From assembly GCA_039630415.1 (NCBI GenBank), contig JBCNVB010000013.1, forward strand, positions 174,492 through 238,491: 64,000 nt of DNA, written 5' to 3'. Origin of the DNA: a bacterium. GTDB taxonomy: Bacteria > DRYD01. The notes beneath the pieces were generated by a model that made no database searches, was not told where the DNA came from, and was given only the letters and a program-made list of their open reading frames with translations. The stretch's first letter is position 1, and every line of letters begins with the position of its first letter. Below are positions 43,874 to 60,619 of the stretch, piece after piece. Made by a program: the position numbers and the translations under genes.

Positions 43874-44613
43874 AGTATAATCTTAAGCAGGGATACAAGA
43901 AAATATACAAATTTTACGAACTTAATAACCATATAATGACATTAGGACTTGATATATACTGGCGAAAAAAAGCTTCAAAAATAATAAAACAAATACTAAT
44001 AAATGAAAATAGAGATGATAAGTTTATATGCTTTGACCTTTGTGTTGGAACGGGTGAGTTTCTAGAACAAATTTTTTATGATACATCTAAAATCTATTCA
44101 AATTCAATTTACTTAGGAGTTGATTTCAGTTTCGAAATGCTATCCATATGTAAACAGAAAAAAGTATATAAAAACCCAAATGTATTTTTGATTATAGCTG
44201 ATGTTGGTTTTCTACCTTTCAAGAATAACAAAGCTAAATTAGTAACTATATCCTTGGGTATTAGAAATTTGAAAAATCCTAATGATTTAGCTATAGATGG
44301 TATGTTTTATCACAGGTTTAAGGAGATATACAGAGTTATTTGTGAAGGTGGATATTTTTGCGGCTTAGAAACTAGTAGACCACCTAACAAGTTTATCAGA
44401 ACCATATCTGATTTTTTCACATTACACTTTTCAACTAATCTTGCTAAGATAATATCCGGAGACTTTAAAACTTACACTTATCTCGCAAAAAGTATAGTTG
44501 ATTTCCTTGATGCCCAAGAATTTAAAAATTTCCTTCTATCTATTAACTTTAAGAAAGTTGATTATTACCTATTCACTTTTGGAGTTGTTAGCTTACATAT
44601 AGCTCAAAAATGA
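43861..44613 (+). CDS. ubiE: UbiE/MenG-family quinone methyltransferase
   Basis: YE..NHIMTLGLD..WR, DLCVGTG, LPF, GIRN and Y.YL..SI..F. Confidence 0.85.
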   Translation: MDYLKYNLKQGYKKIYKFYELNNHIMTLGLDIYWRKKASKIIKQILINENRDDKFICFDLCVGTGEFLEQIFYDTSKIYSNSIYLGVDFSFEMLSICKQKKVYKNPNVFLIIADVGFLPFKNNKAKLVTISLGIRNLKNPNDLAIDGMFYHRFKEIYRVICEGGYFCGLETSRPPNKFIRTISDFFTLHFSTNLAKIISGDFKTYTYLAKSIVDFLDAQEFKNFLLSINFKKVDYYLFTFGVVSLHIAQK

Positions 44614-45047
44614 AAGAAGTAAAATATAATCCTGAAGCAGATATCGTATACATTATCGATCTATCAGATCTTATAAACCAAAAAGTAGATAGTTTATCTG
44701 ATTGTTTTAATATTATCATCCAACCTTTCCAAATAAACTCTCTATATAATACGCAACCATTCATCCTTAATTGCTACTATACGATAAAAAAAATTGCTGA
44801 TAGTTTTTTGATGAATTTGAAAATCGATTGTAGTATACCTACTATTTGTGATATATGTGGAGTAACGTTTAATTTTCCATTTCGCTTTCAGGTTCAGGAA
44901 ATATTTACTTCATACTTTGAATATACTAATAAATTTGATGATATGTATTATTTTATTTCAAACGATGATAAGATAGATGTTGGTAAAATATGTATCGAGA
45001 ATTTCATTTCAAACCTACCTATAACATACAGATGTTCTAATTGCTAG
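44610..45047 (+). CDS. DUF177/YceD family protein
   Basis: CDIC...E.F, D.ID....E....LP...C..C pattern. Confidence 0.75.
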   Translation: MKEVKYNPEADIVYIIDLSDLINQKVDSLSDCFNIIIQPFQINSLYNTQPFILNCYYTIKKIADSFLMNLKIDCSIPTICDICGVTFNFPFRFQVQEIFTSYFEYTNKFDDMYYFISNDDKIDVGKICIENFISNLPITYRCSNC

Positions 45048-45852
45048 TTTTTTTGTGTTTGATAGAATAGTAAATTTTATAGTAAACTATACCTACAAAT
45101 TCTGATAGAGCTATGTTTGTTGTTTCAAGGTTTTTTATTGATGGTAAGAAATCATATTTTGATATTTTATATTGGTATCTGTAGTTGCAGGGCACAAAAA
45201 TTATATTGTTTTGAACAAAATTCTTATCGAAAGTGTTTTTAATAGATATTTTAGTCCTTGTAATATGAAAAGCTGAAGTAACTATGGCTATCTTATCATT
45301 TGAATTTACGAAATTTTTTAGGTTTTTTACGTTTTGGTAAGTATCTAATGATTCATTTTCGGTAAATATGTTTACATCTTTTAGGTATTTGGGTTGTATG
45401 CTTGTGACAAGAAGTTTCATATACTTGGCTATGTTTGTATTGTATTGTATACTTTTACCTAGGATTAGAATCTCTGGTTCTTTATTAGAGTATTTTTTTA
45501 TAGCTTGATATATAAGTAAAGCTGTCAAGAGTCTTGATAAACTATCTTCAGATAGTTCTCCATTTGCTTTAATTCCTCCCGTCAAAACTACTATCTTATT
45601 TATCTCTTTAAACATAGGTATTACATCTTTGGGATTTGTAATGAGGGAATAGTAGAGATAGTAATTATTCAAATATGGTTTTTCCAAGTTATATATTGCT
45701 AAATTTGCTCCTATAGTGGTAGAAAAAAAATAGAATATTGCTAAGATTATGGCAATTAGTAACTTTTGTTTTCGAGGTAATAATATCAAAGTAACAAGTA
45801 AGAGTATAAAGATGATATTTAGGAAAGAGGAAAGTAGTTTTTTTAGAAACAT
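45037..45852 (-). CDS. YdcF/ElyC (DUF218) family membrane protein
   Basis: N-terminal TMs, VLTGG, E..S.DT.QN, VTSAFH..R and E..G. Confidence 0.85.
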   Translation of the reverse strand: MFLKKLLSSFLNIIFILLLVTLILLPRKQKLLIAIILAIFYFFSTTIGANLAIYNLEKPYLNNYYLYYSLITNPKDVIPMFKEINKIVVLTGGIKANGELSEDSLSRLLTALLIYQAIKKYSNKEPEILILGKSIQYNTNIAKYMKLLVTSIQPKYLKDVNIFTENESLDTYQNVKNLKNFVNSNDKIAIVTSAFHITRTKISIKNTFDKNFVQNNIIFVPCNYRYQYKISKYDFLPSIKNLETTNIALSEFVGIVYYKIYYSIKHKKTSN

Positions 45853-45858
45853 GAGGGT

Positions 45859-46302
45859 TTATTTTTGCTGGTTATAGTGTTTTATTAATTCAAGAACTTC
45901 TAGTGGATTATTCTGAGCCGATGCTTTTCTCCATATTTTGACTATTTTACCGTTGGGATCTATCAATACAGTGTCTCTTGAAAAAAAGATTTTACCTTGA
46001 ACACCGAATAATTTTGCTATTTGTCCAGCCTTATCACTTACTAGCTTTATTTTAAGATTACAATTTTGAATGAATTTTTCGTGAGATTTATTACTATCTT
46101 TACTTATTCCAATTACTTCTGCTTTTTGGTTTTCAAATTCTTGTTTCAATTTTGAGAATGTTTGTGCTTGGACTGTACAGCCAGGTGTATTATCCTTAGG
46201 ATAAAAGTATAAGACAATCCACTTACCCTTACCAACTTCTATTACTTCTCCATCTGAACTTTCTAGTTTTAAATCTTGGACTATATCACCCTCTTTGTAC
46301 AT
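45859..46302 (-). CDS. bcp: Peroxiredoxin, BCP/PrxQ type
   Basis: LYFYPKDNTPGCT, GISKD and R.T.LID. Confidence 0.92.
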   Translation of the reverse strand: MYKEGDIVQDLKLESSDGEVIEVGKGKWIVLYFYPKDNTPGCTVQAQTFSKLKQEFENQKAEVIGISKDSNKSHEKFIQNCNLKIKLVSDKAGQIAKLFGVQGKIFFSRDTVLIDPNGKIVKIWRKASAQNNPLEVLELIKHYNQQK

Positions 46303-46313
46303 GTCTGACCCTT

Positions 46314-46898
46314 CTAAATCTCTATTATGTATTTTTTTTGTTGATTGATATTCTTATTTTCATAAATTGCCACTAGTTCTATTCTACCTCTTTGATCTTT
46401 AGGAATTATTATCGAAACAGAATTGCTTGAAGTATAGTATATGGATACATTTTTTGTTATAGATTTTATTTCTACAAATGGTGAGAAATTGAAATACCAC
46501 GTAACATATAAAACATCATATCTATCAAAATCATATTTTCTTACGTTCATTATGCTAGGGAAGCAGTAAACATAGTTTGAGGGGGGGGATTCTGAAAAAC
46601 TCACAATTTTGTTATTTTTGAGTTCAAAATATAGATGTTTATTAAAAGGTTTAGAGTTTGTAAGTGCATCATAAACTTCCTGTGTTACGTAAAATCTTTG
46701 AAGGGAAGATAAGAGGATAAAAGGAGGGGAGTAAGAGGTAGATTTTCCTATATGTTTTATACTGCCTTCCGCTGTTGAGATTGTCTCGGCTCTGACATAA
46801 AAAAATGATAGGAAAATTGCAATAAATAAAATCATTAAAGCATTTTTTAAAATCAATTTAAGTTTGGTCAATCTAGATTTAATTTGTGAGATATTCAT
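46314..46898 (-). CDS. Hypothetical exported protein
   Basis: 194-aa ORF with an N-terminal hydrophobic segment ending VRA-E. Confidence 0.55.
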   Translation of the reverse strand: MNISQIKSRLTKLKLILKNALMILFIAIFLSFFYVRAETISTAEGSIKHIGKSTSYSPPFILLSSLQRFYVTQEVYDALTNSKPFNKHLYFELKNNKIVSFSESPPSNYVYCFPSIMNVRKYDFDRYDVLYVTWYFNFSPFVEIKSITKNVSIYYTSSNSVSIIIPKDQRGRIELVAIYENKNINQQKKYIIEI

Positions 46899-46908
46899 TT
46901 TGAATTTA

Positions 46909-47376
46909 TTATGTCCCAGCTTCTTCAGTTTCTATTTCTTCAGGATTTTCAAATTGTTCTATTATTTCCATTACCGTTAGTGTAAGATATAGTATCTCTT
47001 CTATCATAGATATTAGATTTTGCTTTTGGGTTTTTAAATTCTGCGAAAACATTTCTATTAGTTTATACGAGTAAGGATTGTTATATCTTGTTAGGTCCAG
47101 TAGATTATTTATCATGTTTTGTGTACTTTGAGTGAATTCTAGTACTCGAGTGTCAAGATCTATAAGATCTTCTTCAAGAGAATCATAGTAAATTTGTTTG
47201 TTACTAAACTTAGATTCGAGAAGAATATATAGACCTTGTTTCACTTTAGGATAGGCTTGTAGAAATTTTTCTAGTAGATTTTGTAGATTTTGTACATTAT
47301 GTATGATATCTTCCGAGGATAGGGCAGACTCTATATTTTTGCATATTTCTAGAAAATTTTGTAAAATTTTTATCAT
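46909..47376 (-). CDS. Hypothetical helical protein
   Basis: 155-aa ORF immediately downstream of tRNA-Ile. Confidence 0.55.
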   Translation of the reverse strand: MIKILQNFLEICKNIESALSSEDIIHNVQNLQNLLEKFLQAYPKVKQGLYILLESKFSNKQIYYDSLEEDLIDLDTRVLEFTQSTQNMINNLLDLTRYNNPYSYKLIEMFSQNLKTQKQNLISMIEEILYLTLTVMEIIEQFENPEEIETEEAGT

Positions 47377-47386
47377 ATAGTAGTAA

Positions 47387-47460
47387 TGGGCCTCTCTGGA
47401 CTCGAACCAGAGACCTTACCCTTATCAGGGGTACGCTCTAACCACCTGAGCTAGAGGCCC
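47387..47460 (-). tRNA. tRNA-Ile (GAT), CCA not encoded
   Basis: Minus strand GGGCCTCTAGCTCAGGTGGTTAGAGCGTACCCCTGATAAGGGTAAGGTCTCTGGTTCGAGTCCAGAGAGGCCCA folds as a cloverleaf. Confidence 0.97.
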
Positions 47461-47530
47461 AACCTATTTTAGAATTTTGATACCTAATACCCTTTCCCTC
47501 CTTATTCCCTTCTTAAAGATACTAATACTA

Positions 47531-49312
47531 CTAAAATCTTATTTTACCAAAAAATAGACCTGATAATAATTCTACATTTTTCATGAATTCTATCAACTTT
47601 TCAAGTACTGCCGTTTGATTATCCATATTCTCAATCATTTCTCTAATATCTATTAGACAGTTTTTCAGAACTACTGTATTCCTAGAATATTGCTCTAGCT
47701 CGGATATTTTACTTATGCTAGTATATAGTTTATCCAGTTCGTTGATACTTTGATTAACTTGAGACAAAGCTTTTTCTTGATCATTATTGATTAAATAATT
47801 CTCTATGATTGATAGGACATAGTTTTGGATTATTGGCGGAATTTTTTGAAGGCTTATTAAAAAAAGCTTCTCTATTGATAGTGGAAAAACTAGATTACAT
47901 TTTCTACATTTCTCACTTAAAAATTCATTCCCTTCTCTACATCTAGGACAGTAAATTTTGCTTGTCAGTAAACTTAAAACTTCTATTGAAAAGCTTCTGT
48001 ACATCAATAATGACTCAACAAAACATAAATACATACTTTCTATATTATCCTCGTAAATACAATAGCTAATGCATTCCTCTGCAAGATTATCCAAAACTGA
48101 AGGTAATTCGATTAATTTTTCTTTGAAATTTGTATTTATTATTGCTCCTATCTTTATAATGTTTTTCACATTTTGCAATATATTAATGAACACCGATAAA
48201 GGAAGATGAAAACTAGCATATAGAACAAAACTATTTATAAATTCTTTTATTTGTGAATTGTTGATATCCTGTTGGTTTGTATTTAAGCTACTTAATACAG
48301 CAGTAATAGATTGTAGTTCCTGTTCATCAAGATTTTCAAATATTTGTAGATAATCACCTTCTAAATTTCTATTTGCTATTATAAACTTTAGTGCTGTTAG
48401 ACGATTATCTTCCATGTTTTGTATACTATTTACAAACTCGGAATTTAAAAAAGAGGAAAGCAAAAGATCATTTAAGATATTAGCTAATAGCATTTTTGTA
48501 TCATCATCGTATTTGCTAAAATTACGCAGTAACTCATCAAATTTAATTTTCTTTAACTTTTCTTTCTCAGCTACAAAAAGACCATTTGAAGCTTGATTAA
48601 TTTGAATAAATATCTTATTTGCTAAATCGGGTTCCTCAGATAGATTTATTGAACCATTGATAAGTTCAAAACTTGCTCCTAAAGCATACTTTATTGCTTC
48701 TACAAAATCAATTTGCTCTTGTATTATTGTTTTTACTTCCTCTTGAGTTTCAAACAACACTTTCTCTAAATTTAGCTTCTTTTCAGTTTGTTGGATTAAA
48801 TTATAAACCCCAAAAAGGTACCTAATTAGTAAATCTACGGGGAAAGATTCAAGGTTAGTTATATTTTCTACATAGCTCCAGAAAATTTTGAGAAATCTGT
48901 CAACTATAGGGTAAGGAGAAATCAAGCTCTGTTCTTTTAGGATTCCAGCTACCTGATTGTTAACGTCAAGGATAGTTATTATCCCCTGTAGTAATTCTTC
49001 AACAAAATCACTGTTTACTGCCTTTAGGTCAGTATTTTCTAGTTTTTCAAGAACATTTTTCAATTGAGATTCCAAATTATAAATGGTTTGCTGTATTTTT
49101 GTAACAAAATCAGGTTCTATATTGACTGTTGCTCTTAGTAGCTTAAATTCATCTATAACCTGACTTTTTAGATCTGTTAGAAAAGATTGTAAATTATTTT
49201 TTTTAACACTAAACTCTTGATCACTTATATAGCTTATTCTGTCAGGGTAATATATTACTATCTCACATAAATTTAGGAATTTAGTTATGGATGGCGGAAA
49301 AAGTACTATCAT
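47531..49312 (-). CDS. Hypothetical helical protein with a zinc ribbon
   Basis: 593 aa; CPRC-x10-CRKC. Confidence 0.7.
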   Translation of the reverse strand: MIVLFPPSITKFLNLCEIVIYYPDRISYISDQEFSVKKNNLQSFLTDLKSQVIDEFKLLRATVNIEPDFVTKIQQTIYNLESQLKNVLEKLENTDLKAVNSDFVEELLQGIITILDVNNQVAGILKEQSLISPYPIVDRFLKIFWSYVENITNLESFPVDLLIRYLFGVYNLIQQTEKKLNLEKVLFETQEEVKTIIQEQIDFVEAIKYALGASFELINGSINLSEEPDLANKIFIQINQASNGLFVAEKEKLKKIKFDELLRNFSKYDDDTKMLLANILNDLLLSSFLNSEFVNSIQNMEDNRLTALKFIIANRNLEGDYLQIFENLDEQELQSITAVLSSLNTNQQDINNSQIKEFINSFVLYASFHLPLSVFINILQNVKNIIKIGAIINTNFKEKLIELPSVLDNLAEECISYCIYEDNIESMYLCFVESLLMYRSFSIEVLSLLTSKIYCPRCREGNEFLSEKCRKCNLVFPLSIEKLFLISLQKIPPIIQNYVLSIIENYLINNDQEKALSQVNQSINELDKLYTSISKISELEQYSRNTVVLKNCLIDIREMIENMDNQTAVLEKLIEFMKNVELLSGLFFGKIRF

Positions 49313-55515: not shown

Positions 55516-56004
55516 CTACAGTCCCCCTTTTATTTTGTATATTATCTTTGTGGTTGATATATCAGGCACAAAAGTTAAAACTTCGTACCTAATCCTGTAT
55601 CTTTCAATAATTCTTATTTCTGGTATTTCCTTACCTTTATAATCGCCACCTTTGAAATACACGTCTGGTCTAAGATACTCAAGCAGTAGAATAGGTGTTT
55701 CTTCTTCAAATGGAACTACAAAATCGACAGCTTCTATAGAAGCAAGAACAATCATTCTATCTTCTAGAGTATTTATGGGTTTATTTGGACCTTTAATTTT
55801 TGCTACACTTTTATCACTGTTTATAGCTACAACTAACAAATCACAATATTCTTTAGCTTGATAAAGATAAGTTATGTGACCCTTATGAATTATATCAAAA
55901 CATCCATTCGTGAAACCTATAATCTTTCCTACTTGCTTGTACTTATCAATTACTAATTTTAGTCTTTCCCAATTGTAGAATATTTTATCGTTTGGATGTC
56001 TCAT
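55516..56004 (-). CDS. rfaE2: D-glycero-beta-D-manno-heptose 1-phosphate adenylyltransferase
   Basis: FTNGCFDIIHKGH, NSDKSV..KG..P, KGGDY and STT.II. Confidence 0.93.
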   Translation of the reverse strand: MRHPNDKIFYNWERLKLVIDKYKQVGKIIGFTNGCFDIIHKGHITYLYQAKEYCDLLVVAINSDKSVAKIKGPNKPINTLEDRMIVLASIEAVDFVVPFEEETPILLLEYLRPDVYFKGGDYKGKEIPEIRIIERYRIRYEVLTFVPDISTTKIIYKIKGGL

Positions 56005-57004
56005 ATGCAGTTTTTTCTAAGAATGTTAAAATATCTTTTGGTTTGACAGCAATTGTTCCAGGCTTAGATACACATATAGACCCCGCAATATTTGCTAACA
56101 TACCACTTTCTAAACAATCAAATCCCAGGTAGTTAAATAGCGCAAAAATCGATACTACGTTGTCACCTGCACCAGTAACATCAAAAACCTCTACCTCAAA
56201 TCCATCAACCTTAATTAATCTTTCTTTATTAACCAAGCTCAACCCTTCTTTACCCAATGTTACCAAAAGACTTGCTATATTGTATCTTTGTATAAACTCT
56301 TTCATACTGTCAAACATGCTCCTTTTATTAAGCCCTACAATTTTTGACAACTCCTGAAACTCCTGTCTATTTAAGGAAATACACTCTATCTGCTTTGTTT
56401 TCATAAACTCTTCAAATAATTCAAAGTTAGATGGCTTGGGAGAAAGATAAACTTTTTGCACTTTTATTTGACTTATGCAACCCATTAAGTTGTAACTAAA
56501 AAAACCTTTATTGTAATCTATCATAATTAGCAAATCATAGGGTTCTTGGAGTTGATTTATTTTATCCTCTATCAATTGGGCTGGAAATTTAAGTTCAGGT
56601 TTTTCCCTATCCACTCTTGCTATTTGTTGATTATTTTGAGCTATTAACCTAGTTTTTACTATAGTTTTATCGTAGGTACTAGTTATGGATTTTATATTGT
56701 ATTTTTGAAGTAGGTTCTTGACCCTTACACTGAATTGATCTTTACCAAGGAATCCCATTAAGGTTACATTTGGGCAATAATAGGATAGTATTTTGGCCAC
56801 ATTACCTGCTCCACCTAGATCATTCCATTCTTTTTCTACCCTTAGTACCGGTACTGGTGCTTCCGGTGATATCCTCTCAACTACACCTTTTAGCCATCTG
56901 TCTAGTATAATATCACCCATTACCAAGATTTTCAAATCTTTTATCTTTTCTAATGCTTTGATAACTCTATGATACAAACTGTGAATATCAATATCTGGAA
57001 TCAT
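55985..57004 (-). CDS. rfaE1: D-glycero-beta-D-manno-heptose 7-phosphate kinase
   Basis: GD..LD....G...RISPEAPVP, GGAGNVA, DYNKG and DVTGAGD. Confidence 0.92.
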   Translation of the reverse strand: MIPDIDIHSLYHRVIKALEKIKDLKILVMGDIILDRWLKGVVERISPEAPVPVLRVEKEWNDLGGAGNVAKILSYYCPNVTLMGFLGKDQFSVRVKNLLQKYNIKSITSTYDKTIVKTRLIAQNNQQIARVDREKPELKFPAQLIEDKINQLQEPYDLLIMIDYNKGFFSYNLMGCISQIKVQKVYLSPKPSNFELFEEFMKTKQIECISLNRQEFQELSKIVGLNKRSMFDSMKEFIQRYNIASLLVTLGKEGLSLVNKERLIKVDGFEVEVFDVTGAGDNVVSIFALFNYLGFDCLESGMLANIAGSICVSKPGTIAVKPKDILTFLEKTAYETSKR

Positions 57005-57999
57005 AGTTGTTTATGTATTCTGGATGGATTACCAACTACAACTGTATTTTCTGGAACATCTTTTGTTACCACAGTTCCTGCTCCTACATAGGAATTAGGA
57101 CCAATTACTTTGGGAGATATTATTACTGCATTTGATCCTATGAATGAATTATCTTTAACGATAGAAGTATATTTTGTTTTGCCATCGTAGTTAGCAAAAA
57201 CCACTCCTGCTCCAATGTTAACATTCTTACCAATTATAAGATCACCCAAATAAGCTAAGTGTGAAGCTTTCAAATTACCCTCAGCATTAACATTCTTGCA
57301 CTCAACAAAAGCTCCAATCTTAGAGTCTTTCAAAATATTACCCTCTCTTAAATGACTAAACGGACCTATATTGCAATCCATTAGTTTATTTTTTCTAACA
57401 AAACTAATCAACAATTTATTATTGTCTGCTATTACAGAATCATATATCATTACATTTGGACCTATCCTATTCGAATTGCCAATAATAGAGTTTATAATTA
57501 CCACGTTATCAAACAGCACATTATCTTTACCTATACTAGATAAGGGACATATGAATATGTTGTCACCCAAGTAAACATTGCCGCTAAATCTTTTTGATAG
57601 TTTTTTAACTTGCTTGTATAGCTTTTCTATATCTTCTAAAGTTCTTATTCTGAAACTAAATTCTCTAATTTTTGTTAGTTTGCTTATTTGTTTATTCTCT
57701 ATAGCTTTAATTATTTCTGAGGCTTTATAAAACATGAGAGGAGAGTTTAGATCAAGAAATAAACTATCTCTATCTAAAATTTTGTCTGACACTAATTCAT
57801 AATCTAACTTAAGACCATAAGCTTTAGTTAAGTCATTTATTAAACTTACTGTGTGATCGTGGGAAATAAAAGTAATCTTAGATTGAAAATGAGTTTGTAA
57901 TTTTTCTAATAACTTAAGATTGGGAAGACATATGGGATATAGAAAGTAATCATCATTGTATTTCCAAACTTCTTCAGTTGCTTTTACTACAATCCTCAT
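57001..57999 (-). CDS. GlmU-like glucosamine-1-phosphate acetyltransferase with reduced N-terminal domain
   Basis: IGPFSHLR, FVECK, KASHLAYLGD, NIGAG...NYDG, FIGSN and GAGTVVTKDVP; the uridyltransferase LAAG.GTRM motif is absent. Confidence 0.8.
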   Translation of the reverse strand: MRIVVKATEEVWKYNDDYFLYPICLPNLKLLEKLQTHFQSKITFISHDHTVSLINDLTKAYGLKLDYELVSDKILDRDSLFLDLNSPLMFYKASEIIKAIENKQISKLTKIREFSFRIRTLEDIEKLYKQVKKLSKRFSGNVYLGDNIFICPLSSIGKDNVLFDNVVIINSIIGNSNRIGPNVMIYDSVIADNNKLLISFVRKNKLMDCNIGPFSHLREGNILKDSKIGAFVECKNVNAEGNLKASHLAYLGDLIIGKNVNIGAGVVFANYDGKTKYTSIVKDNSFIGSNAVIISPKVIGPNSYVGAGTVVTKDVPENTVVVGNPSRIHKQL

Positions 58000-58011: not shown

Positions 58012-60519
58012 CTATGTTTTCAGTTTTACTATTTGTTTTATGGGTTCAAAACGTATGGTAAAGAATCTAAGGAAAGGAGGTTCGTAAACTATGTTTAACC
58101 CACTTATCTCGTGTCTTATGTCATAGACGCTTTTTATTACCTGACAAGTATATTCCATATGTTCTTTGGAGTAAACTCTTCTGGGAATAGTGATTCTGAC
58201 GAGTTCTAGTTCTGGATATTTGTGTTTACCTGTTTTTGGATCTCTACCTGCTGAAACTATTCCTCTTTCCATGGTTCTTACGCCACCGTATAGGTATATG
58301 TAAGCTGCGAGTGTTTGGGCCGGAAACTCATCTTGAGGAATGTGCTCCAGGAATCTTTTGGCATCCAAGTAAATTGCGTGTCCTCCAATGGGTTCAACGA
58401 TGGGTATATTGTTTTGTTTTAGCAAATTACCTAGATATCTGACTTGCTCAATTCTGTTTTTTAGATAATAAAAGTCGGTCATTTCTAATATTCCCTGTGC
58501 TAGCATAGCTATATCTCTTGGGGCTAAACCACCGTTGTAATATTCTCCTTCGAATATGTTAAGCATCTTTACCATTTGTTTGTATAATTCTTGAGACCTA
58601 ACAAGTATCAATCCACTTATGTTGGTTAGGGGGTCTTTTTTAGCTGATATAGTTGCTGCATCCGCTAAACTCATGATTTCTCTAATTATCTCTTTAATGG
58701 ATTTATCTTGGTACCCTTGTTCTCTTTCTTTGATAAAGAAAGCATTTTCTGCTATTCTAGTAGCATCGAGTACAAGAGGGATACCGAAATGATCACATAT
58801 TTTTCTGATTTGTTTGAGATTATCTAGTGATACTGGTTGTCCACCTGCCATATTAACATTGTTTTCAACGCAAACATATGCTATCTTTTCTTTTCCATTC
58901 TTCTCTATAAAGTCAACCAATCTATCTACATCTATATTACCCTTAAATGGATGGTACACTTCCGGTTTGTAAGCTTCTTCGATTATCAGATCTACAAAGA
59001 TTCCTTTTGCATACTCTTGATGGAATCTAGTAGTAGTAAAGTACATATTATTGATAACATATTGAGAAGGTTTTATCATTGTCTGAGATAGTATATGTTC
59101 AGCTGCTCTACCTTGATGTGTAGGTAAAAAGTATTCAAACCCGAAGACTTCCTGTATAGAATCTCTCAACAAATTGTAAGCTCTTTTTTGATCATAAAGA
59201 ATAGCTTTACTCCATTGTTCATCACTTATACTACTTGTTCCACTATCGGTTAGAAAATCTATGTAAACTTCACTAGCTGGAATCAGAAAAGTGTTATACC
59301 CAGCTTCTTTTAGTACTTGTTCTCTTCTTTCAAAAGAGAAAAGCTGTATTATTTCTATACCCTTAAAGTTATGTGATACGTATTGTCTTGGATCTATTAT
59401 GTTAGTTATATTAGGATCACTTAGATATCTTTCAAACGTGTCTAAGAAAAGTTCTAGATTTTGCTTTTGATATCTTCTTGAAGGTAGAAAAATAAAAAGA
59501 TGATTGTCCAGATTATATCCTCTGACTTGGCCTATAATAAATAGAGTATTGTTTATATTAGGATCTTTGTGGGATATATAAAAATAATGTGGAGTATAGC
59601 TATCTGTTAGTTTAAAGTTTGAATGTTTACTTGAAAGATGCTTTAGATTATTGTATAGAAAGCCCATAGAATTGAATTTGTATTCCCACATTTGTTGATT
59701 TTGAGCTTCTATTAAACCTGCATTTATTACTTCCATATCTCTACCTGCTAGGCCACCGTAAGTATGAAGTCCTTCAAATGCCACTACCCACTCCGTAAGA
59801 TACTCATAATACTTAAAATCATTTGTAACTAAAATTGCACCATTATTGCACATTAAATCAAAACAGGCATCGATTACTATAACATCAAAAAGTTTGCTTA
59901 AGTGTTTTATTTTATTTAAATCTGCTCTGGTTAGAGAGAATATACTTGAAAAGTCACCTATCATTAGTGCTGATCTGTCTCTTATGTTCTCAACAAGCTT
60001 AGTTATATCGCCGTATCCAAAAATTTCTACAGAATTGAGCATTAGTATAGATATCAGATTATTCTGATTTTGAGATCCGTTTGACAAAGAATTGTTTGCA
60101 TTTGTACTATAAGGTATTTTATAATAGTTGATTAAGTTTGTAAGATGGAAGTGTTCAAAAGGATTATAAAAAAATATTGCTAGTTGATGGTTTGGATATT
60201 TTTCAAAGGTTTTAATAACTAAATTCCAAGCTCCTTTAATATTATGGCAAGGTAGAACATAATCTTTTTCGAAGATGTCTTTTACTATTTTATTCATCTT
60301 GATAAAGTTCTCACTGCCAGCGTAGGATTCGTCACCTAAAAATAACGAAGAGTACTGATTTTCACTTAGAGCGTTTAAATCTATCCTCGATAAATCTGTC
60401 CATACGTACTCTTCCTCTATTAAATTTGCATCATTCATGTTTTTTTGGAGAATTAATTTCCTTTGTGAAAGATCTAAATACTGGGGGAAATAAATTATTT
60501 TTCCCTTGTATGGTTGCAT
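58012..60519 (-). CDS. tpl: Tyrosine phenol-lyase, tandem double-domain fusion (~835 aa)
   Basis: C-half has AGYNTF, DFLTDSGT, THQGRAAE, NMYFTTTR, DATR, SAKKD, MERG..SAGR and LRFFT (TPL-type rather than tryptophanase-type); N-half is a diverged second copy. AAGGAG RBS before the ATG at 60519. Confidence 0.9.
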   Translation of the reverse strand: MQPYKGKIIYFPQYLDLSQRKLILQKNMNDANLIEEEYVWTDLSRIDLNALSENQYSSLFLGDESYAGSENFIKMNKIVKDIFEKDYVLPCHNIKGAWNLVIKTFEKYPNHQLAIFFYNPFEHFHLTNLINYYKIPYSTNANNSLSNGSQNQNNLISILMLNSVEIFGYGDITKLVENIRDRSALMIGDFSSIFSLTRADLNKIKHLSKLFDVIVIDACFDLMCNNGAILVTNDFKYYEYLTEWVVAFEGLHTYGGLAGRDMEVINAGLIEAQNQQMWEYKFNSMGFLYNNLKHLSSKHSNFKLTDSYTPHYFYISHKDPNINNTLFIIGQVRGYNLDNHLFIFLPSRRYQKQNLELFLDTFERYLSDPNITNIIDPRQYVSHNFKGIEIIQLFSFERREQVLKEAGYNTFLIPASEVYIDFLTDSGTSSISDEQWSKAILYDQKRAYNLLRDSIQEVFGFEYFLPTHQGRAAEHILSQTMIKPSQYVINNMYFTTTRFHQEYAKGIFVDLIIEEAYKPEVYHPFKGNIDVDRLVDFIEKNGKEKIAYVCVENNVNMAGGQPVSLDNLKQIRKICDHFGIPLVLDATRIAENAFFIKEREQGYQDKSIKEIIREIMSLADAATISAKKDPLTNISGLILVRSQELYKQMVKMLNIFEGEYYNGGLAPRDIAMLAQGILEMTDFYYLKNRIEQVRYLGNLLKQNNIPIVEPIGGHAIYLDAKRFLEHIPQDEFPAQTLAAYIYLYGGVRTMERGIVSAGRDPKTGKHKYPELELVRITIPRRVYSKEHMEYTCQVIKSVYDIRHEISGLNIVYEPPFLRFFTIRFEPIKQIVKLKT

Positions 60520-60619
60520 TTGAGTACTCCTTTCTCTTTTTGCTATAGATAGTATTAACAAAAATACGTTTTACTCCTCTTTCGGAAGGTTTGAGATCAA
60601 CTTACAGAAATTATATAAA

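Follow-up and report, generated by a model that had tools for sequence, protein, structure and literature searches.

On the reverse strand of the window described here—a stretch of 64,000 nucleotides from contig JBCNVB010000013.1 (assembly GCA_039630415.1), belonging to a bacterium of the GTDB lineage DRYD01—lies a gene of the tryptophanase/tyrosine phenol-lyase (TPL) family. The encoded protein holds two TPL-like copies in one chain, an N-terminal half (N-half) and a C-terminal half (C-half), and the elements of the TPL active site are divided between them. The positions of the gene and its motifs are collected in Table 1. The start codon is the ATG that follows a strong ribosome-binding site. 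A TTG at 60561, 14 codons upstream, opens a longer frame, and is probably not the start, because the homologs begin at the same EPYK-type motif in the alignment consensus.

Two TPL-like halves in one chain

The family models recognize the double structure of the protein. The Pfam domain Beta_elim_lyase (PF01212; cut-off 27 bits) matches the whole protein in two stretches with 256.8 bits, and still matches the N-half alone with 35.2 bits. On the NCBIfam model of the tryptophanase/TPL subfamily (NF009709; cut-off 285), the whole protein scores 656 bits and the C-half 554.5 bits, and the N-half alone stays under the cut-off at 106.3 bits (E 1.6e-30). The tryptophanase equivalogs TIGR02617 and NF053783 are not reached (473.4 and 562.8 bits, as compared to cut-offs of 825.8 and 750). 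Between the two halves, the sequence identity is 21% (E 2e-10). The chain thus consists of two homologous halves of the fold-type-I class of enzymes dependent on pyridoxal 5′-phosphate (PLP), only one of which has the PLP lysine.

The C-half matches the solved TPLs over its full length, with 48–49% identity (E 4.5e-147) and a single gap of four residues in the GDEAYAGS loop. The numbering of Citrobacter freundii TPL is therefore obtained by subtracting 375 from the full-length position before this loop, and 371 after it. Accordingly, K628 corresponds to Lys257, T495 to Thr124, R752 to Arg381, F819 and F820 to Phe448 and Phe449, and N633 to Asn262; the equivalents of Asn185, Asp214, and Arg404 are also present. 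The motifs of this half follow each other in the TPL order, starting at residues 424 (TDSGT), 467 (THQGRAAE), 491 (NMYFTTTR), 585 (DATR), 750 (MERG), 756 (SAGR), 774 (VRITIPRR), and 817 (LRFFT). By the equivalents of Lys257, Thr124, Arg381, and Phe448/Phe449, the C-half is of the TPL type. By the possession of its own Tyr71 and Tyr291 within a homotetramer subunit of about 456 residues, it is not, since the tyrosines missing from the C-half occur only in the N-half of the 835-residue chain.

The N-half is more distant from the solved TPLs (E 1.5e-23) and aligns with them only over residues 14–125 and 214–293. These parts include the sequence GDESYAGSENF (residues 62–72, nucleotides 60304–60336) and the sequence VVAFEGLHTYGGLAGRDME (residues 245–263, nucleotides 59731–59787). 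In the alignment with solved TPL, E64 corresponds to Glu69, Y66 to Tyr71, L251 to position 288, and Y254 to Tyr291. Y254 is also the equivalent of Tyr307 in the Escherichia coli tryptophanase TnaA, and a direct alignment places Tyr74 and Tyr307 of TnaA on Y66 and Y254. In the clade to which the window protein belongs, the N-half has 372–380 residues, as compared to a family median of 446, and the segments missing from it are the Phe123/Thr124 loop, the Arg381 insertion, and the C-terminal Phe448/449 segment. An earlier note on this DNA had described two TPL-like copies in one open reading frame, and the matches of both halves to solved TPL bear this out; every motif and coordinate it had listed was correct when re-read on the 835-residue protein.

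The roles of the partitioned residues are cited here from excerpts of the published papers. In E. coli tryptophanase, the Tyr74 and Tyr307 hydroxyls bond with the PLP phosphate of the neighboring subunit in the catalytic dimer, and the Y74F mutant has negligible activity (PMC2770544). In TPL, the active site lies at the interface with the neighboring subunit; Lys257 is the PLP lysine, Tyr71 the general acid, and Arg381 the general base, while Thr124 is crucial and Phe448/449 touch the substrate ring (PMC10170061). Tyrosine elimination by Y71F TPL was undetectable (PMC5054688). The premise of the earlier note, that the catalytic tyrosine is given by the neighboring subunit, agrees with the action in trans of Tyr74 and Tyr307 in E. 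coli tryptophanase (PMC2770544).

Table 1. Coordinates of the fused gene and of its sequence features in the window
Feature	Positions	Strand	Basis
Whole coding sequence, fused double Beta_elim_lyase protein	58012..60519	-	835 residues and stop; open reading frame list, PF01212, TIGR02618, NF009709
Ribosome-binding site AAAGGAG	60527..60533	-	7 nucleotides before the ATG at 60519; direct reading
N-half, residues 1–380, degraded TPL-like pseudo-domain without PLP lysine	59380..60519	-	NF009709, match to solved TPL, fold model
Tyr71-type loop GDESYAGS, residues 62–69	60313..60336	-	TPL alignment, family conservation, predicted interface 63–70
DACFD, residues 217–221, in place of the S-x-K-K-D motif of the PLP lysine	59857..59871	-	Alignment; F220 at the Lys257 position
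Tyr291-type loop EGLHTYGG, residues 249–256	59752..59775	-	TPL and TnaA alignments, conservation, predicted interface 246–252 and 256–261
C-half, residues 381–835, catalytic TPL-type domain	58015..59379	-	Solved TPL (E 4.5e-147), TIGR02618, structure superposition
TDSGT, residues 424–428 (TPL Thr49–Thr53)	59236..59250	-	Conservation in 119/119; predicted interface
Degenerate Tyr71-loop equivalent AILYDQKRAYNLL, residues 439–451	59167..59205	-	Four residues shorter than in TPL, without the catalytic Tyr
SAKKD, residues 625–629, K628 as PLP lysine (TPL Lys257)	58633..58647	-	TPL alignment
Degenerate Tyr291-loop equivalent FEGEYYNGG, residues 656–664	58528..58554	-	N662 at the Tyr291 position

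Reciprocal partition across the fused family

Homologs were collected by a search of 5.8 billion protein clusters, in which 7996 of the 8000 candidates scored matched with E ≤ 0.001. For the conservation analysis, we used the best 120 listed matches minus one fragment of 510 residues, which left 119 proteins of 821–955 residues, including the query. In the N-half, the Tyr71 loop is essentially invariant: G62, D63, Y66, A67, and G68 are each present in 117 proteins, the other two having gaps, and E64 is present in 116. The Tyr291 loop is invariant at E249, G250, L251, Y254, G255, G256, G259, and R260. The C-half keeps the complementary set. TDSGT, H468–R471, N491–T496, D585, T587, R588, S625, K627, K628, D629, N633, M750–G753, R775, R780, R781, and L817–F820 are found in all 119 proteins, and its Tyr291 position is never tyrosine (Asn in 52, Asp in 25, Ser in 22, Thr in 13, Gln in 5, and His and Cys in one each). 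The complementary loss described in the earlier note is thereby a conserved property of the family.

One detail of the earlier description holds for part of the family. The C-half Tyr71 loop is four residues shorter in the window gene and in its clade (26 of the 119 proteins), whereas in 90 it has its full length and the tyrosine is replaced, by Pro (37), Glu (21), Leu (16), Ala (6), or others, with no Tyr among the residues listed. The deletion of four residues is a clade trait, and the loss of the tyrosine from the C-half is universal in the 119 proteins. In the remaining three (P0027, P0030, and P0033), the loop has 19 residues and reads GDER[VI]G: Gly-Asp-Glu is retained, one residue is deleted, and the tyrosine is lost. 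These loops may represent an intermediate stage of loop decay.

The N-half has also become free to vary in the other parts of the site. Its Lys257 position is occupied by Glu (51), Gln (34), Gly (9), Phe (6), Tyr (5), Lys (5), His (3), Ala (3), Leu (2), and Asp (1). When 66 N-halves, 66 C-halves, and 38 canonical TPLs are aligned together, the C-halves and the TPLs show no variation at the cis positions, which are free to vary among the N-halves. Conservation of 95% or more is seen at 28 positions of the N-half and at 136 of the C-half, and the mean pairwise identities are 33% and 58.5%, respectively. Of the 28 N-half positions, 18 belong to the two loops, which together have 27 residues (hypergeometric p 1.7e-17). 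The mean frequency of the top residue in the N-half is 0.98 in the two loops and 0.43 in the remainder. In the C-half, it is 0.33 at the loop-equivalent positions and 0.68 in the remainder. Because the conserved positions concentrate in the loops in this manner, selection on the N-half appears, from its sequence, to act chiefly on the fold and the two trans loops.

The fused members come from Candidatus Calescibacterium (70% identical to the window protein), Nitrospirae, Elusimicrobia, Riflebacteria, Eisenbacteria, ‘bacterium HR21’, Candidate division WOR-3, Nitrospira calida, and metagenome-assembled genomes (MAGs) of Deltaproteobacteria and Nitrospiraceae. All nine other genomes of the window's taxonomic family carry the fused gene, with frames of 835–842 residues in the same genus (one cut at a contig end) and of 899–900 residues in a second genus. 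The 31 genomes searched outside this family gave either no match or weak matches of the single-domain type only (E ≥ 2.7e-13). A scan of genome contigs with the whole alignment kept 80 loci, most of them single-domain; only L010, L011, L012, and, in part, L026 are fused. Three further loci in MAGs of Saprospiraceae, Bacteroidetes, and Kapaibacterium (L016, L054, and L087) were rejected as fused members, as each consists of two separate adjacent single-domain genes. In L016 and L054, one gene is tryptophanase-like (ending in LRHFT) and the other TPL-like (ending in LRFFQ); in L087, the first gene ends in LRFFQ and the contig stops within the second. Only single-domain clusters lie near the query in the ESM Atlas.

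Free-standing N-halves did not emerge from the searches made for them. When proteins of 209–665 residues were searched with the N-half, the only strong match was a 510-residue fragment from a contig of 1747 bp, and the other matches were canonical TPLs with E values of about 1e-23. No free-standing N-half was found among 1.84 billion representatives either (399 matches with E ≤ 1e-3, four of them at ≤ 1e-30). Three candidates for free N-halves (P0254, P0252, and P0279) turned out to derive from fused genes by truncation or frameshift.

Some apparent single-domain members are products of annotation. The RefSeq entry ‘tryptophanase [Nitrospira calida]’, with 465 residues, equals the last 464 residues of a fused frame of 923 residues, its first residue being rewritten as Met; in P0407, the long frame has an Ile at the place of the annotated first residue (P0406/P0407 are from Nitrospiraceae/Nitrospira calida). 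The long frame has GDEAYAGS at 79, EGLHTYGG at 293, TDSGT at 516, SAKKD at 721, and LRFF at 913. Similarly, WOR-3 entries of 467 residues (P0028/P0388), in which only the C-half is annotated, share a 90% cluster with forms of 831 residues. If our reading of the family is true, the short annotated products from Nitrospira calida and WOR-3 would miss the catalytic tyrosines, and the RefSeq annotation would hide the family.

We calculated phylogenies with IQ-TREE (55 rows) and FastTree (172 rows). In the IQ-TREE phylogeny, the N-halves, the C-halves, the sampled canonical TPLs, and the tryptophanase-like proteins form clades with supports of 99, 96, 99, and 98, respectively, and the first three together are split from the tryptophanase-like group with a support of 99. 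A support of 98 places the C-halves as the sister group of the canonical TPLs (FastTree agrees), and the N-halves fall outside. A tree in which the N- and C-halves are constrained to a single clade is worse by 18.8 log-likelihood units and is not rejected by the approximately unbiased test (p 0.143). The branches of the N-halves are long. Duplication in place and fusion of older paralogs are both compatible with this value. The pairwise identities of the N-halves and C-halves are correlated (Pearson 0.92), an argument against the shuffling of domains. These sequence relationships support a single origin of the fusion.

Predicted interface and proposed mechanism

The AlphaFold model of the full-length protein is confident, with a predicted local distance difference test score (pLDDT) of 93.4 and a predicted template-modeling score (pTM) of 0.92. 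Its C-half (residues 378–827) superposes on C. freundii TPL (6dvx_A) with a Z score of 57.4 and a root-mean-square deviation (rmsd) of 1.1 Å over 446 residues, and Foldseek gives template-modeling (TM) scores of 0.94–0.95 against solved TPL. The N-half folded alone, from an alignment of eight rows, has a pLDDT of 80.3. It matches TPL and tryptophanase with Z scores of 30–32 and an rmsd of about 3.1 Å over 341–343 residues, covering TPL residues 9–434. Among the 50 PDB matches shown, no solved chain spans both halves.

We then predicted the complex of the C-half (residues 381–835), PLP, and the N-half (residues 1–380) as separate chains, each with an alignment of 119 rows. The complex scored 0.88, as compared to 0.01 for the best of three controls; the mark for this score is reached by 116 of 157 solved complexes and by 2 of 215 mismatched pairs. 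Contacts agreed between runs to at least 93%, and the pLDDT of the partner was at least 88. In the predicted complex, residues 63–70, 246–252, and 256–261 of the N-half contact residues 423–424, 426–428, 468–469, 471–472, 633–634, and 820–821 of the C-half. E64 contacts G427, T428, and N633. In TPL, Glu69, Gly52, and Asn262 have roles in cation binding, and Met288 has a role as well. On the opposite side, the degenerate loops of the C-half (443–446, 654–658, and 664–669) lie in a mirror arrangement on the degenerate site of the N-half (92–99, 128–132, and 225–226). The predicted interface is of the catalytic-dimer type.

Taken together, the gene likely encodes a single-chain pseudo-heterodimer of the TPL/tryptophanase family, in which a dead N-half supplies the two loops that the C-half has lost. 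The C-half would bind PLP at K628 and hold all the own-side residues of a TPL site, including T495, R752, and F819/F820. It lacks the two loops that a neighboring subunit normally inserts, and the N-half, a catalytically dead copy that would be kept under selection almost only as a loop donor, would supply both. Y66 would act as the general acid in the manner of Tyr71, E64 would take the place of Glu69, and Y254, as the equivalent of Tyr291, would touch the PLP phosphate. We infer that the two halves of one chain pair with each other, so that each chain would have one live site, made of the cis residues of the C-half and the trans residues of the N-half, and one dead site, and would bind one PLP. 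The earlier note had already spoken of one live and one dead site, and the partition in 119 fused proteins, the published trans tyrosines, and the predicted interface support it. Two chains would probably form a pseudo-tetramer, because both halves retain the N-terminal arm strand.

Several points weigh against this reading. The score on the TPL equivalog TIGR02618 is 697.3 bits for the whole protein and 604.6 bits for the C-half, under the cut-off of 720.7. Six N-halves carry a lysine, five at the Lys257 position (P0014, P0015, P0016, P0019, and P0068) and one at the Lys256 position (P0038); all six lack the equivalents of Phe123 and Arg404, and most also lack that of Asn185 or Ser254. The high score of the complex may come from memorization, by the prediction model, of the homodimers solved for TPL and tryptophanase. 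In addition, Y254 is not among the listed protein–protein contacts, which leave residues 253–255 unnamed; in the model, this may be because Y254 would contact PLP rather than protein. Finally, the pLDDT values of the lone N-half are low in the arm and the loops (34 for residues 1–10, 34/49 for 51–70, and 53 for 251–260, as compared to 95, 96/85, and 76 in the full-length model), as would be expected if the C-half orders the loops, but this contrast is confounded by the alignment depth (8 vs 119 rows).

How the halves meet allows for an alternative. As the complex was built from separate chains, it is silent on connectivity, and pairing within one chain and between two chains would look the same. 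The N-half of one chain might thus complete the C-half of another, the two halves of each chain meeting at a non-catalytic interface. Both halves keep the arm strands (E4–10 and E384–390) that are used at the non-catalytic interface of tryptophanase, according to the excerpt of PMC2770544, and the link is short, with the last N-half helix ending at residue 367 and the C-half aligning to TPL from 377/378. The full-length model of the monomer is, however, compact as well as confident (pTM 0.92), with a pLDDT of 89–97 in the linker blocks, and we regard such a domain swap as unlikely. The fate of the N-half pocket was also considered. The earlier note had suggested that the dead site may have become regulatory, and the retention of the N-half fold, the presence of Gly99, Arg100, and Asp214 equivalents in the N-half of some lineages, and the proposal, in the excerpt of PMC7259800, that the N-terminal half of the glycine decarboxylase GLDC binds PLP non-catalytically would be in line with a ligand-binding site. 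The equivalents of Thr49, Phe123, Asn185, Arg217, Ser254, Arg381, and Arg404 nevertheless vary freely in the N-halves, the window's clade has deleted the segments that carry those residues, as reflected in its short N-half (372–380 residues vs a median of 446), and the conserved positions sit mostly in the two trans loops (18 of 28). This suggestion is not borne out, and a regulatory pocket is very improbable.

The faster evolution of the N-half (identity of 33% vs 58.5%, and 28 vs 136 conserved positions) would also be expected of a neutral, decaying remnant of a tandem duplication, with the C-halves pairing among themselves as in a normal TPL. A dimer of C-halves would, however, miss both trans tyrosines in all 119 proteins, and the Y71F mutant of TPL is inactive on tyrosine (excerpt of PMC5054688). 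Moreover, the N-half loops are essentially invariant across phyla, and the N-half frame is intact in every one of the 119 proteins and in all nine related genomes. This explanation is the least credible, and we give it almost no weight. The pseudo-heterodimer with a loop-donating N-half is thus the reading that we carry forward.

Substrate, surroundings, and comparison with known systems

What does the fused enzyme act on? The reaction is most likely the β-elimination of L-tyrosine to phenol, pyruvate, and ammonium. TPL chemistry is expected because the C-half keeps the residues that distinguish TPL, namely Thr, Arg, and Phe at positions 124, 381, and 448, where E. coli TnaA has Asp, Ile, and His. 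Our confidence in this sequence-based assignment is moderate, because the equivalog score is under its cut-off and the gene neighborhood is uninformative. The same architecture might serve a substrate other than tyrosine, such as an S-alkyl-cysteine or a modified aromatic amino acid: besides the TIGR02618 score, the C-halves group among themselves, as the sister of the sampled canonical TPLs, and no gene in the neighborhood points to tyrosine metabolism. Set against this, the equivalents of Thr124, Arg381, and Phe448/449, which are reported to be required for tyrosine (excerpts of PMC10170061 and PMC5054688), are invariant in all 119 C-halves, TnaA and the paralog in the same genome have Asp, Ile/Val, and His instead, and the model of the C-half superposes on C. 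freundii TPL with an rmsd of 1.1 Å. A different substrate is accordingly a possibility to be held in mind, though a somewhat doubtful one.

The paralog lies outside the window, on contig C8 of the same genome (locus L002, 1378..2703, forward strand). It is a single-domain protein of 441 residues with the full motif set, its Asp, Val, and His at TPL positions 124, 381, and 448 are of the tryptophanase type, and its score on NF009709 is 525 bits. Similar genes of 442–468 residues occur in related genomes.

In the window, the neighbors of the lyase gene are lspA, uvrB, and genes for a hexapeptide transferase, a PfkB kinase, and a cytidylyltransferase. Directly downstream, at 55516..57999 on the same strand, a hexapeptide-repeat transferase, a PfkB-family sugar kinase, and a cytidylyltransferase-like gene are tightly packed, with no visible link to the lyase; we take the latter two to resemble the two halves of a heptose-activating enzyme. 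No conserved gene neighbors were found, the fused genes of L010 and L011 being flanked by unrelated genes. A scan for promoters and terminators did not rise above shuffled sequences (17 vs 13.9 ± 4.3). One DNA sequencing run, labeled as a hot-springs metagenome, contains this DNA and may be its source sample; no RNA run is listed as containing it in the same search of sequencing runs. The GC skew, followed from position 1, stays above zero up to about 46 kb and lies below zero between about 46 and 60 kb; its cumulative curve peaks near 46 kb. The change of sign at about 44000–48000 may be a replication-related switch, and a tRNA-Ile gene is located at 47386..47461.

We consider it likely that these proteins form a widespread family of obligately asymmetric TPLs, in which an internal pseudoenzyme is the permanent donor of the general-acid and PLP-phosphate tyrosines, in an independent replay of the event that gave rise to the P-protein GLDC. 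In ordinary TPL and tryptophanase, the subunits are identical, and hence each mutation hits the cis and trans roles together. The natural fusion places these roles on different domains of one chain, where they would be separately mutable. Half-site questions could thereby be tested, such as the trans work of Tyr71 and Tyr291, the cross-talk between the sites of a dimer, and how much of a subunit is required for it to serve as a partner. The family would also be a clear example of a fusion made permanent by reciprocal degeneration, as the searches yielded neither split nor single forms and the two halves diverged in parallel across phyla. In addition, the fused enzyme may be useful in the engineering of TPL for L-3,4-dihydroxyphenylalanine (L-DOPA) and tyrosine analogs.

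Among the known systems, TPL (EC 4.1.99.2; C. freundii and Erwinia herbicola; TIGR02618) is the closest to the C-half, with which it shares the PLP lysine, the specificity residues, and the fold, and the N-half also falls on the TPL side of the tree rather than on the tryptophanase side. Unlike the 456-residue subunit of the TPL homotetramer, however, the fused protein is a chain of 835 residues with two unequal copies. As judged from the sequences, its catalytic domain lacks Tyr71 and Tyr291 and would receive both from a second, dead domain, and there would be one site per pseudo-dimer rather than two. Tryptophanase (TnaA; E. coli and Proteus vulgaris) has the same fold, belongs to the same family (656 bits on NF009709), and uses the two trans tyrosines Tyr74 and Tyr307. 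The fused protein differs from it in its TPL-type specificity residues, and its genome has a separate tryptophanase-like paralog.

Our search of the literature, which left most subscription journals outside its coverage, found no description of a double or fused TPL or tryptophanase. The remark in the earlier note that it knew of no characterized example therefore stands for this family, but has to be narrowed, as there are precedents in other fold-type-I families. According to the excerpt of PMC7259800, GLDC exists as a single chain of more than 1000 residues or as an α–β heterodimer, its halves are homologous, and Gln replaces the PLP lysine in the N-terminal half. The glycine decarboxylase P-protein (GLDC/GcvP) is thus like the fused TPL in combining a dead N-half with a live C-half in the fold-type-I PLP class. 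It belongs to another family with another chemistry and is missing from the family and structure match lists of the fused protein, so that no relationship in sequence emerged from these comparisons, and a split form exists for GLDC, whereas none was found for the fused TPL family. In serine palmitoyltransferase, the subunit LCB1 lacks the PLP lysine and completes the site of the subunit LCB2, and LCB2 precedes LCB1 in the viral fusion. The two subunits are fused in one gene in most Emiliania huxleyi viruses (coccolithoviruses), as reported in the excerpt of PMC5371807. Unlike the fused TPL, this enzyme belongs to the α-oxoamine synthase family and is membrane-associated. The arrangement therefore has precedents in other fold-type-I PLP families, and is new for the β-eliminating lyases.

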